From Candidatus Woesebacteria bacterium (lineage in GTDB: Bacteria; Patescibacteriota; Microgenomatia; UBA8517), in assembly GCA_020060565.1 (NCBI GenBank), contig JAGVAE010000002.1:371270-435269 (forward strand): a stretch of DNA of 64,000 bases, written 5' to 3'. Position 1 is the stretch's first letter, and each line of letters begins with the position of its first letter. The notes beneath the pieces were generated by a model. That model made no database searches. It had not been told where the DNA came from and saw only the letters and a list, made by a program, of their open reading frames with translations. Made by a program: the position numbers and the translations under genes. Positions 361 through 63,280 of the stretch are shown in pieces.

Positions 361-1124
361 AGCCCAAAATATCAATTGTTGTTCCTTCATACAACAAAGT
401 TAAATTTATTGAGCTAACTTTAAAATCTATCTTTTCTCAAAATTATAAAAATCTTGAGGTTATTATTCAGGATGGTGGTTCAACTGATGGATCCGTTCAA
501 ATAATTAAAAAATACGCAAAAAAATATCCAATCATTTGGGTATCAAAGAAAGATAAAGGACAGACAGATGCAGTGAATACTGGTTTAAAAAAAGCTACTG
601 GGCAAATACTGACTTTTATTAATGCTGATGATTGCTATAAACACAATACGCTTTCATTGGTGGCAAATACATATATTAAATATCCCAAAGCTCTTTGGTT
701 TGTTGGACAAAGTATGGTAATTGATGAGAATGGAAAAGAGAAAGCAAAACTAGTTACACGATACAAGAATTTACTCTTGTTTCTAAATTCTAAATTCTAT
801 CTTCTAATTACTAATTATCTAATGCAGCCATCAGTTTTCTTTACAAAAGAAGCATACAAAAAATATGGACCATTTATTGGAACCAGTGATTTTATTTGCG
901 AATATGACTTTTGGCTTAAACTTGCGCATGTTTCAATGCCTATGGTTTTAAATAAGTGTATTTCAAAATTTAGAATTGAACCCAATACAAAAACAAAAAG
1001 AATGTTCAAGAGTCTTTTATTTGAAGATGTAAAAATAGTTAAAAAATATACTAACAGTCCTTTGATTTTATTTCTTCACGAACTTCACAATTTAGGAAGA
1101 GTTCTGATTGCTAAATTTGTATGA
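357..1124 (+). CDS. glycosyltransferase family 2 (GT-A fold)
   Basis: N-terminal ISIVVPSYN...EVIIQDGGSTDGS and DxD-like INADD motifs. Confidence 0.8.
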   Translation: MKPKISIVVPSYNKVKFIELTLKSIFSQNYKNLEVIIQDGGSTDGSVQIIKKYAKKYPIIWVSKKDKGQTDAVNTGLKKATGQILTFINADDCYKHNTLSLVANTYIKYPKALWFVGQSMVIDENGKEKAKLVTRYKNLLLFLNSKFYLLITNYLMQPSVFFTKEAYKKYGPFIGTSDFICEYDFWLKLAHVSMPMVLNKCISKFRIEPNTKTKRMFKSLLFEDVKIVKKYTNSPLILFLHELHNLGRVLIAKFV

Positions 1125-2563
1125 TCAAATTTTTAGGTAAATATAAATACATACTTTTAACTTTTTTAATAGCATTTATTCTTTTTTATCCTTCACTTTT
1201 TACGTTTTTTACAAATGATGACTTTTTCTTTTTAAATATTGCAAAAGCAAATAGTCTTGGTGAATTTTTTAATTTTTTCTCTCTATCAAAAGGTCCTGAG
1301 GGATTTGGAATGTATAGACCATTAACAACTCAGGTATTTTATTTTTTATCGCGTAGTTTATTTAATCTATCTCCTCTCCCACTTCATATAATTTCTTTAA
1401 TATTTTTCTTTGGAGTAATTTACTTGGTATATAGATTAGTAGTTGAATTGGTAAAGAACGAGAAAGTAGCCATCCTTTCGGCATTTTTATATGCGGTTTC
1501 TGCTACCCATTTTGGTCAACTATATTACCTGGCGGCTTTTCAAGAATTGGGGATGACACTATTTGTCATCCTAAGTTGTTTAATGTTTATAAAAAGGAAG
1601 AATTTACTTAGTTTTATTTTCTTTGTCCTGGCTCTTATGTCAAAGGAAACTGCGGTGGTTACACCAATTCTTTTGGCTTTAATCTACTTTTTCCAGAAAT
1701 TTAATGGAGAAAAAATTATTAGTTTTAAAAGGTTTATTGTTCTTTTGTCTCCATACCTCATACTGCTTGCTACATATTTTGTTTTCCGTTTCGCGAGTTA
1801 CGGTTTTGCAACTGGAGATAGTTATATTTGGGACTTCTCCTTAAGAAAACTTATTAATACTTCATTTTGGTATCTTCTCTGGTCATTTAACATTCCGGAA
1901 TCCTTGGTTGATTTTATTGGATCAGGGTTAACAATTAACCCTAATCTGTTTGTCTTTTGGGGAGATCAGATCAAGCCAATACTTATATTATTTATTGTTC
2001 AAGCCTTAATACTTATATATGTTTTGTTTAGATCAATTGTAAAAAATGATGGGAAGAATAAAAATGCCAATAGTTTTGTTTCGGCACTTTGTATTGCTTG
2101 GTTTTTTGTTAGTTTACTGCCAGTAATATTTTTGCCACTCCATAAATTTACTTTTTATTTAACTCTTCCTTTGATTGCAGTAACATTTAGAATCGCATAT
2201 TTATTAATAACTACAAAAGTGAATAGGATTGTTATTGGAATATTTTTATTGGTTTGGACGATAACTTCAGTTTTAACGTTAAAATTTACATATGTAACTA
2301 ATTGGATAAGTCAAAGCCAAATAATTTCGCAAAGAGTGTTTGAATTTTTTAATTCTGAGGGATCAAAATTAGAAGGAAAAACCATAGCTTTTGTCGATAC
2401 AGAAGATGATTCTAATGTTTTTTGGTCTCCAACAAGTACCATAAGAACGGTTCTTTCCGACAAAAACTTTTTCGATGTTTTCTTTCCAAATTTAGCTGAT
2501 AAAATTGACTATAATGGACAGGGTGAAATCAAAATCAAATCGAGGCAGTTTTTGGGATATTAA
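1121..2563 (+). CDS. polytopic membrane protein, GT-C-like (ArnT/PMT-like) glycosyltransferase
   Basis: About 12 predicted TM helices; acidic FTNDDFFF in the first loop; LMSKETAVV motif shared with the other GT-C paralogs in this window. Confidence 0.5.
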   Translation: MIKFLGKYKYILLTFLIAFILFYPSLFTFFTNDDFFFLNIAKANSLGEFFNFFSLSKGPEGFGMYRPLTTQVFYFLSRSLFNLSPLPLHIISLIFFFGVIYLVYRLVVELVKNEKVAILSAFLYAVSATHFGQLYYLAAFQELGMTLFVILSCLMFIKRKNLLSFIFFVLALMSKETAVVTPILLALIYFFQKFNGEKIISFKRFIVLLSPYLILLATYFVFRFASYGFATGDSYIWDFSLRKLINTSFWYLLWSFNIPESLVDFIGSGLTINPNLFVFWGDQIKPILILFIVQALILIYVLFRSIVKNDGKNKNANSFVSALCIAWFFVSLLPVIFLPLHKFTFYLTLPLIAVTFRIAYLLITTKVNRIVIGIFLLVWTITSVLTLKFTYVTNWISQSQIISQRVFEFFNSEGSKLEGKTIAFVDTEDDSNVFWSPTSTIRTVLSDKNFFDVFFPNLADKIDYNGQGEIKIKSRQFLGY

Positions 2564-61794: not shown

Positions 61795-63280
61795 GCAAAT
61801 TGCCCAATTCCTAGCCACCAAGAAATTCGAGTATATATTGTTATCGTTCATAATCTTGTGTGGATTTTTGGTCAGACTGTACAAAATCGACAATCCTGTT
61901 GCTGATTGGCATAGTTGGAGGCAAGCGGATACTGCATCAGTTACCAGAAATTACATTAATTTTGGAATTAATTTACTCGTTCCTAAATTTGACGATATAA
62001 GTAGTATCCAATCCAGAATTTCCAATCCCGAAGGATTTAGAATGGTAGAATTTCCTTTTTATAACGCACTGAGCGCATTTATATCAGTTAACTTGGGCTT
62101 TTTTAGTGTTGAGGTTTGGTCACGTCTTGTTACGATTTTTTGTGCCCTTATTACCTCTTTCTTTTTATATTTGATAGGTAAAAGAATAATAGGAAAGTGG
62201 GGAGGAATACTTTCTGCTTTCTTCTACCTTTTTATTCCATTTAACATTTATTTTACGCGTGTAATTTTACCAGATCCAATGGGAGTAACCTTTGGAGTAG
62301 TAGCACTTTGGTTTTTTATAAAATTTTCCGATGATGCTGGAGAATTATATTTATATTTATCGGCGGTATTTTTTGCATTAATGCTTCTTATTAAACCCTA
62401 TCTGGGATTTTATCTTTTCCCTGTTATTTACCTTTTTATTAACAGGTTCGGTTTAAAAACAATACTTAAGGATAAAAAATTAGTTCTCAAAGTAATTATT
62501 TTTCTAGCTATTATACTCATTCCCTTTATTGTATGGAGATGGTGGGAGTCAAAGTTTCCTGCAGGCATTCCACTTTTTTGGTGGGCATTTAATGGAAATG
62601 GAATAAGGTTCCATCCTGCATTTTGGAATTGGATTTTTGGAGAAAGAATTGGGCATTTGATTTTAGGATCGTTTGGTTTAGTCCCATTTATTTTTGGAAT
62701 CCTAAACACAGAAAAGAAGACGCTTCGCGATAAAAACAACTTTATCCATTGGTTTCTGATCGGAGCCCTTTTCTATTTTATAGCTGTAGCTAACGCCAAT
62801 GTTATGCACGACTATTATCAAATTTTGGTTATTCCCATGATTGCTTTGACTCTTTCTTCGGGAAGCATATATCTTTGGAATCAGAATGTATTTAATAAAA
62901 TTATTGCTAGATCTATCTTAGTTTTCTCTGTATTTATCATGCTAATAACAGGTTGGTTTCAAGTGAAAGGAAACTATGTAGTTAACCACTGGGAGATAAT
63001 TGAGGCAGGGAAAGCAATTGATAAAATTGCCCCCAAAGACGCATTGGTAGTTGCCCCATATGTGGGAGATACGGCTTTTTTGTATCAAACAAAAAGAAAG
63101 GGCTGGCCTGCAATTGATGACTCAATAGACAACATAATCAAAAAAGGAGCTAATTATTATGTTTCAGTTGATTTGGGGAGCGTTGACACTAAAATGATAG
63201 AATCTCGGTTTAAAACAGTAGAAAAAAATGATAAATATATAATAGTTGATCTCGGTAAAGAACTAACCAAATACGAATGA
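61787..63280 (+). CDS. GT-C glycosyltransferase, ArnT/PMT-like
   Basis: DNPVADWHSWRQADTASVTRNY motif after TM1 and MLLIKPYLGFY motif. Confidence 0.55.
   Translation: MNKQIAQFLATKKFEYILLSFIILCGFLVRLYKIDNPVADWHSWRQADTASVTRNYINFGINLLVPKFDDISSIQSRISNPEGFRMVEFPFYNALSAFISVNLGFFSVEVWSRLVTIFCALITSFFLYLIGKRIIGKWGGILSAFFYLFIPFNIYFTRVILPDPMGVTFGVVALWFFIKFSDDAGELYLYLSAVFFALMLLIKPYLGFYLFPVIYLFINRFGLKTILKDKKLVLKVIIFLAIILIPFIVWRWWESKFPAGIPLFWWAFNGNGIRFHPAFWNWIFGERIGHLILGSFGLVPFIFGILNTEKKTLRDKNNFIHWFLIGALFYFIAVANANVMHDYYQILVIPMIALTLSSGSIYLWNQNVFNKIIARSILVFSVFIMLITGWFQVKGNYVVNHWEIIEAGKAIDKIAPKDALVVAPYVGDTAFLYQTKRKGWPAIDDSIDNIIKKGANYYVSVDLGSVDTKMIESRFKTVEKNDKYIIVDLGKELTKYE

Follow-up and report, generated by a model that had tools for sequence, protein, structure and literature searches.

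Three-component extracytoplasmic glycosylation is an established system (PMC11127046). The GacI/GacJ/GacK/GacL system of Streptococcus pyogenes, which serves the side chain of the group A carbohydrate, has one GT-C glycosyltransferase and one donor; GacJ and Rv3632 are small membrane proteins that bind and stimulate GacI and PpgS, and GacK has been proposed as a flippase (bioRxiv 10.1101/180810). The synthesis of mycobacterial arabinogalactan and lipoarabinomannan (EmbA-C, AftA-D, PimE and Mpt, with PpgS/Rv3632/Rv3779) draws on few donors, decaprenyl-P-arabinose and polyprenyl-P-mannose, for many GT-Cs. The mycobacterial GT-C genes are scattered over a genome of ~4.4 Mb. The DNA analysed here is a stretch of 64 kb, hereafter the window (contig JAGVAE010000002.1, positions 371,270 to 435,269), from a Woesebacteria-like bacterium of the candidate phyla radiation (CPR, Patescibacteria), whose complete relatives have genomes of ~1 Mb. 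Fifteen of its genes are predicted to encode GT-C membrane glycosyltransferases. The window probably represents most of one very large, operon-like cell-surface glycan cluster, which exceeds 64 kb and is unbroken, and an expanded polysaccharide cluster with a greatly enlarged extracytoplasmic GT-C arm appears to be the best explanation of its content.

The window contains 57 open reading frames (ORFs, named here by their first coordinate) of at least 150 aa, all but three on the plus strand, besides a gene of 110 aa (28-360) and one that is cut off by the 3' end. Gaps between the ORFs are never more than 90 bp, and on this basis the gene packing looks operon-like across the window. The initial annotation, made from the letters alone, had described polytopic proteins of similar topology, and a hydropathy scan recovered 20 such ORFs with 5-11 predicted transmembrane (TM) segments each. 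The concentration of GT-Cs claimed there is also real, but their number is 15, not about seven. With 6-11 TM segments each in the same scan, the 15 candidates together account for 7,341 codons and 34% of the window nucleotides.

Assignment of these proteins to the GT-C class draws on profile and fold comparisons. The PMT_2 family (PF13231, gathering threshold 26.1 bits) was matched at or above threshold by six ORFs (14694, 37980, 39525, 46398, 53935 and 61787; 28.8-59.8 bits) and slightly under it by two others, 47710 (23.4 bits) and 51828 (25.0 bits). The other seven GT-C ORFs have no PMT_2 match of their own; members of four of their ortholog families do match. Seven of the polytopic ORFs were without any Pfam match, of which six were then placed as GT-C and one, 13758, was not. 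Negative controls taken from the same window and run against the same profiles (Wzy_C 60409, Wzx 44290, EamA 56249 and acyltransferase-3 34325) remained below 2% probability against the GT-C profiles, save for one 18.7% match of the Wzy_C protein to the 46398 family. Fold comparison revealed the three-dimensional GT-C fold, the AF2 models of 1121 and 3775 being all-helical bundles.

The GT-C paralogs are at most 28% identical to one another in blastp, which indicates that they are ancient and rules out recent tandem duplication or an assembly artefact as their source. Searched against the PDB by sequence and profile, the 1121 family, 61787 and 6177(-) returned nothing and the 50056 family gave weak unrelated matches only; NCBIfam offered no above-cutoff name for any window GT-C. 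The low Pfam scores (23-60 bits) suggest distant, unclassified GT-C families. Judged by sequence, the set comprises about a dozen deeply divergent GT-C families that lie outside all solved GT-C structures.

The acidic and lysine motifs on which the class had initially been proposed are all present in the ORFs named for them. The acidic motifs are FTNDDFFF at aa 30 of 1121-2563, FVDEITWM at aa 28 of 39525-41045, MTHDELNH at aa 38 of 50056-51831, WLDEATTA at aa 22 of 53935-55230 and WRQADTASV at aa 44 of 61787-63280, and the lysine motifs are SKETAVV (1121), TKETGIY (6177-8429, minus strand), TRPQAF (37980), TKPQGF (39525), TKQTAV (46398) and IKPYLG (61787). Profile-profile alignment places the acidic residues D33/D34 of 1121, D36/D37 of 9981, D41/E42 of 50056 and D24/E25 of 53935 at homologous positions, and likewise aligns K175 of 1121 with K183 of 9981, K197 of 3775 and K203 of 61787. 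Inside each ortholog family the motif residues are invariant or nearly so; in the 48 sequences of the 61787 family, D40, H42, R45, Q46, D48, K203 and P204 never vary. The acidic motif stands 3-25 aa past TM1 in 13 of the 14 ORFs examined, which are all the candidates but 6177(-); 37980 has the motif but no TM1. The tail before TM1 is short, rich in K/R and poor in acidic residues, which, by the positive-inside rule, assigns the motif to the outer side, where solved GT-C enzymes also have it. The location in the first extracytoplasmic loop is thereby supported; none of the proteins proposed as GT-C was placed in a transporter family, and no D/E loop was found to be cytoplasmic.

The individual GT-Cs differ in how closely they can be tied to described families. 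The best conserved is 61787..63280 (+), which matches both PMT_2 (59.8 bits) and PMT (PF02366, 27.3 bits) and has orthologs in 48 CPR loci. It is the only window ORF that matches the GT39 family PF02366, and the NCBIfam Pmt model scored 25.8 bits against a cutoff of 800; no MIR domain was found among the 20 polytopic ORFs scanned against Pfam. The GT-C at 53935..55230 (+; PMT_2, 38.8 bits) has D24 and E25 invariant in 27 orthologs. The GT-C at 50056..51831 (+), with D41 invariant and E42 near-invariant, is linked by hhalign to the 53935 family (99.3%) and the 61787 family (98%), and its distant homologs carry PF13231 and PF02366. The sub-threshold protein at 47710..48996 (+) is linked to the 61787 family at 97.6%, and 51828..53078 (+) is its paralog (blastp 4e-28). 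A homopolymer of eight G residues lies at 52565-52572 inside 51828-53078, in a genome of 31% GC. The close relative's locus L051 does not keep the tract at the DNA level; a role in phase variation is therefore improbable, and a phase-variable poly-G switch was rejected.

Towards the start of the window, 1121..2563 (+) has D33, D34, K175 and E176 family-invariant. The GT-C at 9981..11558 (+), with D36, D37 and K183 near-invariant and E184 invariant, gave 141 matches in a representative library; PMT_2 is matched by 13 of 80 aligned members, and hhalign links it to the 1121 family at 99.3%. A rare family, of which 25 clusters were found, is represented by 3775..5055 (+). The protein at 14694..16073 (+; PMT_2, 30.4 bits) has three additional N-terminal TM segments and is linked to the 9981 family at 90.9%, and the GT-C-like 12527..13774 (+) is its paralog (blastp 3e-13 to 4e-15 over ~325 aa), both having the motif WDAxALYDxRA. 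On the minus strand, 6177..8429 encodes a GT-C-like protein of 750 aa with an N-terminal TM segment followed by an extracytoplasmic domain of ~170 aa. It carries TKETGIY and is linked to the 9981 family at 94.3% over residues 311-592. No relative of it was found in Pfam, NCBIfam, PDB, the 48 genome loci or the metagenome scan, and with that scan empty its GT-C placing rests on one hhalign link; the sole counterpart met is a gene of 750 aa at the same position on the close relative's contig.

In the central part, PMT_2 proteins are encoded at 37980..39521 (+; 33.4 bits), 39525..41045 (+; 43.8 bits) and 46398..47744 (+; 28.8 bits). The first lacks TM1, as evident from its N-terminal sequence: the protein of 37980-39521 begins right at the acidic motif (MNIFLTFSDAAKFADIARN). 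L051 encodes a PMT_2 protein of 513 aa, truncated by the edge of the locus, as a possible ortholog; should it be one, the missing TM1 is conserved and is not a start-codon artefact. The remaining GT-C, 41042..42412 (+), belongs to the GtrC-type family DUF6056 (PF19528, 72.6 bits), for which GT_STM0557_N is the newer Pfam name. STM0557-0559 constitute a gtr O-antigen glucosylation operon (PMC3688519).

Genes for the supply of lipid-linked donors are encoded beside these enzymes. The window starts within a PpgS/GacI-like GT2, of which the last eight codons (KWKLTLK*, 3..26, +) remain. The peptide is identical to the C-terminus of L050:8235-8906 in the 85-90% identical relative, a protein whose best NCBIfam match, over its full length, is PpgS, the polyprenyl-phospho-GalNAc synthase (108.9 bits against an equivalog cutoff of 370). 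It is followed by a small DUF2304 membrane protein of the GacJ/Rv3632 family at 28..360 (+; PF10066, 74 bits), which by analogy likely activates the upstream synthase, and by a soluble GT2 of generic GT-A type at 357..1124 (+; PF00535, 102 bits), which overlaps the GT-C at 1121..2563 by 4 nt. In 25 of 36 metagenomic loci with sufficient upstream sequence, the PpgS-like gene, DUF2304, 357-like GT2 and 1121-like GT-C follow one another without interruption, and the 357-like GT2 stands between DUF2304 and GT-C in 28 of 36; a 3135-like methyltransferase and a 5045-like GT2 often come after the module. The GT2 at 5045..6148 (-), which has a 128-aa N-terminal extension, is of DPM1/ArnC/AglJ type. 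Its sole PDB matches are the dolichyl-phosphate-mannose synthase (DPMS) 5mlz (1.3e-13, over the whole catalytic domain) and ArnC, and its best NCBIfam match is AglJ (92 bits), so that it is predicted to be of the polyprenyl-phosphate-sugar synthase type. It lies directly downstream of the GT-C 6177(-) on the same strand. A GT-C is hence encoded with a synthase here, as in three-component systems, both in the 6177(-)/5045(-) pair and in the PpgS-like module.

Of the initial claims on the GT2 genes, the presence of an adjacent DPM1-type enzyme and the translational coupling were borne out, the second coupled pair being 53099..53938 (+; PF00535, 106.8 bits; two C-terminal TM segments) and 53935..55230, which also overlap by 4 nt. 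Of 29 loci, 16 have a 53099-type gene as the immediate upstream neighbour of the 53935-type GT-C, and in 10 the two genes overlap. The further claim that the GT2 partners are polyprenyl-P-sugar synthases holds for 5045(-) and the GT2 at the window start, but could not be shown for 357 and 53099, which resemble ordinary GT-A GT2s. The best matches of these two are chondroitin synthase, TarS, GalT1 and similar enzymes; for 357, chondroitin synthase heads the PDB matches together with other GT2s. Matches to DPMS, GtrB or ArnC are weaker and cover only the N-terminal ~100 residues. The 53099 protein has the invariant motifs DDG, DAD, DDD and HAKWxGKR, which look cellulose-synthase-like; in the PDB its one long match is to 6yv7, a membrane mannosyltransferase of Pyrobaculum, and it is not GtrB- or DPMS-like. 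Another GT2, at 45567..46391 (+; PF00535, 36.8 bits), lies upstream of two GT-Cs and adjoins 46398. The adjacent PpgS-like and DPMS-like GT2 genes hint indirectly that the GT-Cs may use polyprenyl-phosphate-linked donors.

The window also holds the genes of a polysaccharide pathway, namely Wzm/Wzt, Wzx, Wzy_C (60409), four GT4s and six GT2s, with eight methyltransferases, three hexapeptide acyltransferases, one acyltransferase-3, a PseB-like dehydratase, epimerases, aldo-keto reductases, a cytidylyltransferase-aminotransferase fusion and, at 26474, a TagF-like protein of the glycerophosphotransferase family. The two-gene exporter at 17730..19814 (+; ABC2_membrane 78.4 bits, ABC_tran 83.7 bits; Wzt_C weak, 20.3 against 30.4) provides the Wzm/Wzt (or TagG/TagH) pair of an ABC-dependent polysaccharide or teichoic-acid pathway. 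A Wzx-family protein at 44290..45570 (+; Polysacc_synt, 61.7 bits) is a candidate flippase for lipid-linked units or polyprenyl-P-sugars, by analogy to GacK, whose proposed role is its model (bioRxiv 10.1101/180810). A conserved Microgenomates core at 55227..61794 (+; Pfam) consists of two GT4s, a hexapeptide acyltransferase, a 189-aa membrane protein, a GT2 and Wzy_C (42.7 bits). Its gene order, [GT2 53099 - GT-C 53935] - GT4 - GT4 - hexapeptide transferase - 189-aa protein - GT2 - Wzy_C - GT-C 61787, is kept across Microgenomates, although here an EamA transporter gene (56249-57196) without counterpart in relatives interrupts it. The contention that the locus is something other than a simple O-antigen cluster was thus overstated: since Wzx, Wzy_C, Wzm/Wzt, the four GT4s, the TagF-like protein and the sugar-nucleotide genes are present, it is itself a polysaccharide cluster in expanded form.

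Beyond the end of the window, where the N-terminal part of a GT4 (63283..63999, +; Glyco_transf_4, 47.7 bits) leaves it, the related locus L004 extends for ~8 kb past the 61787 ortholog with GT4, GT2, GT4, GT4, ManC, a PglC-type Bac_transf and DUF4012, followed by the housekeeping genes RecO, ZIP and NUDIX. The Bac_transf phosphoglycosyltransferase of L004 (205 bits) lies ~5.4 kb downstream of the 61787 ortholog; no initiating phosphoglycosyltransferase was found inside the window. The 692-aa DUF4012 protein (L004:17507-19585) closes the conserved cluster behind it, and ORFs of like size and position in other Microgenomates loci suggest that DUF4012 ends the cluster there too. The 189-aa core protein (58943-59512), which has N- and C-terminal TM segments, no family match and a place between the hexapeptide acyltransferase and the GT2 in 34 related loci, was considered as a PglC-like phosphoglycosyltransferase and rejected, as it has no Pfam match and the wrong architecture.

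Compared with the S. pyogenes system, the locus is alike in the order of a GT2 synthase and a DUF2304 activator with a GT-C nearby, in a Wzx-family candidate flippase and in an ABC-exported backbone. It differs in having 15 GT-Cs instead of one GT-C with one donor, and an extra soluble GT2 between DUF2304 and GT-C; no rhamnan genes were identified here, and the PpgS score of 108.9 bits against 370 is no equivalog-level match. The likeness to the mycobacterial system lies in the few donors and many GT-Cs, whose genes are contiguous here. No DprE, UbiA or phosphoribosyl-pyrophosphate-pathway genes were seen in the cluster, and comparison with the mycobacterial enzymes showed no similarity at the sequence level. 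With the GtrA-GtrB-GtrC O-antigen glucosylation of Salmonella and Shigella the locus shares the GtrC-type 41042, and the logic of a GT2 paired with a GT-C recurs, e.g. in 53099/53935 and 6177(-)/5045(-), but 53099 is GtrB-like in the nucleotide-binding region only and GtrA is wanting: the window has no GtrA-family match and no intergenic room for a small gene. A further difference is the organism, as CPR bacteria are not known to have lipopolysaccharide. The flippase candidates are Wzx 44290 and EamA 56249, neither of which is specific.

ArnT (GT83) and the protein O-mannosyltransferases (GT39) have the same fold, the loop-1 Asp/Glu motif and a basic residue that is conserved around TM5-6, and eight window ORFs match PMT_2. 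The present proteins differ in having no arn operon context (ArnA, ArnB, ArnC, ArnD and ArnE/F, with lipid A as the acceptor), no MIR domain and no sequence-level PDB match even with profiles. Wzx/Wzy- and ABC-dependent O-antigen or capsule clusters have Wzx, Wzy_C, Wzm/Wzt, GT4, GT2, sugar-nucleotide and modification genes in common with the window, and PglC-type phosphoglycosyltransferase and ManC in common with relatives of this cluster. Such clusters normally have zero to few GT-Cs, whereas the 15 GT-Cs are the largest gene class here.

The explanation as an expanded polysaccharide cluster would operate as follows. Glycan synthesis would start with the PglC-type phosphoglycosyltransferase, which in relatives is encoded just beyond the window end, and cytoplasmic GT4 and GT2 enzymes would assemble lipid-linked glycans that cross the membrane via Wzx or the Wzm/Wzt ABC exporter. 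Alongside this route, single sugars would be put on polyprenyl phosphate by at least two GT2s, the PpgS/GacI-like enzyme with its DUF2304/GacJ-like helper and the DPM1/ArnC-like enzyme. The flipped sugars would be passed by the 15 divergent GT-Cs onto the exported glycan at the outward face of the membrane, probably with one linkage or branch per GT-C, and the product may be polymerised or ligated by the Wzy_C-family protein. A heteropolysaccharide, wall-associated or membrane-anchored, is taken as the acceptor in preference to a protein. What the data establish in this scheme are GT-C fold and family membership, the acidic motif with its conservation and its place outside the membrane, the synthase type of two GT2s and the kept gene order, whereas donors, flippase, acceptor and sequence of steps are inferred. 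Several observations weigh against this scheme. A GtrA/GtcA-type flippase is absent from the window, only two clear polyprenyl-P-sugar synthases stand against 15 GT-Cs, and by sequence the GT-C-coupled GT2s 357 and 53099 do not belong to the synthase type. The window showed no gene that would define an acceptor, such as an LCP ligase or a sortase, 6177(-) and 12527 each hang on a single sequence-level link, and for some GT-Cs the donor could be a polyprenyl-diphosphate oligosaccharide or the target a protein.

In a different reading, the GT-C array, with the Wzy_C protein as a PglL-like O-oligosaccharyltransferase, would mainly glycosylate surface proteins, S-layer proteins and pilins for example, and not a polysaccharide; we consider it unlikely. 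A view of the polytopic proteins as transporters, or as membrane proteins of some other non-enzymatic kind with chance sharing of motifs, might be argued from the seven proteins without a Pfam match of their own and from the PDB sequence searches, which return no GT-C for the 1121 family, 61787, 6177(-) or the 50056 family, but this is contradicted by the fold searches and is effectively excluded.

It is improbable, too, that the GT-Cs are alternative serotype-like (Gtr-style) modifiers, of which a subset is used at once and which are kept by diversifying selection from phages or hosts. Close relatives do differ in content: a phosphonate cassette (phosphoenolpyruvate mutase, phosphonopyruvate decarboxylase and iron-containing alcohol dehydrogenase; L049:18206-21578) directly follows the ABC exporter in L049, and the Fic and EamA genes present here are absent in L051. 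The upstream part varies among the 48 loci with the core fixed, and 41042 is a member of a GtrC-type family. Against this, the relative at 85-90% identity retains the window GT-C orthologs in the parts seen, the paralogs are ancient (at most 28% identity) with catalytic residues conserved in each, there is no conserved phase-variation tract, the lone G8 run in 51828 being absent from the relative, and the packing is operon-like.

The distribution of the cluster supports its assignment to the lineage. A search of a genome collection with the 61787-63280 protein gave 48 loci, the best match being 73% identical, and nearly all belong to Patescibacteria/CPR (Woesebacteria and other Microgenomates, Collierbacteria, Levybacteria, Daviesbacteria and Pacebacteria); two lie on complete chromosomes of 1.08 and 0.98 Mb. 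GT-C matches in the 48 loci are nearly all upstream of the 61787 ortholog, with only two in total downstream, and typically 2-4 GT-Cs occur within the 10 kb upstream, which makes multi-GT-C clustering a lineage trait expanded in this genome. The same cluster occurs at 85-90% identity in a close relative (Logan SRR22388165, a 252-kb contig; loci L049, L050 and L051), where at least two further PMT_2 proteins lie upstream of the position of the window's left edge, bringing the full cluster of that relative to at least 17 GT-Cs. The GC content of the window is ~31% and even (range 0.29-0.365), and on this ground a recently acquired island was rejected. In public collections the window's proteins occur on one contig of 438,146 bp, with every product labelled as a hypothetical protein.

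Every component class of the locus is known, and no new mechanism is indicated. What is unusual is the presence of 15 GT-Cs in 64 kb, in a lineage with genomes of ~1 Mb, together with their divergence from solved and curated GT-C families and the uncharacterised accessory proteins. CPR/Patescibacteria, whose genomes are minimal, presumably live attached to host cells, which makes their surface chemistry central to their biology. Judged against the ~1-Mb complete relatives, the cluster occupies at least 6% of the genome, a third of the window DNA being GT-C genes; these figures point to a strong investment in an elaborate surface glycan, probably branched and methylated or acylated. One paper on a Parcubacterium reports 20 glycosyltransferases for the whole genome; in the literature on glycosyltransferases of Patescibacteria, CPR and Woesebacteria, as far as our incomplete search coverage extends, no study of GT-C arrays in CPR was found. 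The value of the locus lies in its scale, its lineage, the uncharacterised GT-C families with defined invariant residues and the conserved PpgS-like/DUF2304/GT2/GT-C module. A more far-reaching idea, which we put forward tentatively, is that some Microgenomates/Woesebacteria of ~1 Mb may assemble the greater part of a highly branched surface glycan extracellularly, through one contiguous array of at least 15 ancient GT-C paralogs fed by few polyprenyl-P-sugar donors, as a mycobacterium-like polymerisation in one super-operon. Its uncharacterised parts would include the 11640/13758 pair interspersed among GT-Cs, the GT-C without TM1 and the 750-aa GT-C with its N-terminal outer domain, and variable cassettes would set host or phage specificity.

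The main variable cassette of the window, at 19824..37925 (+; Pfam), contains methyltransferases, the PseB-like dehydratase, epimerases, aldo-keto reductases, the cytidylyltransferase-aminotransferase, the TagF-like protein, a GT2 and the acyltransferase-3. Since the cassettes that follow Wzm/Wzt differ between the window and L049, the locus behaves as a swappable decoration module. Four soluble proteins are without significant Pfam or NCBIfam match (16070-17014, 24463-25761, 25763-26467 and 35488-37266), one of them being of 592 aa. A Fic-domain gene (42413-43495, -; 52.7 bits) lies mid-cluster on the opposite strand; in the close relative an asparagine-synthase-like minus-strand gene lies nearby, after Wzx, and the part seen has no Fic gene.

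Two further membrane proteins are interspersed among the GT-Cs. The membrane-anchored protein at 11640..12530 (+), which has no Pfam or NCBIfam match, is a paralog (blastp 8.8e-9) of the protein at 13758..14693 (+), which has five TM segments and a C-terminal soluble domain and showed no profile link to any GT-C family. They share the C-terminal motif IPxQ..WP...N...RYF.xPR and may be extracytoplasmic accessory subunits. The pair alternates with three GT-Cs in the order GT-C - X - GT-C - X - GT-C, and L049 is arranged alike.

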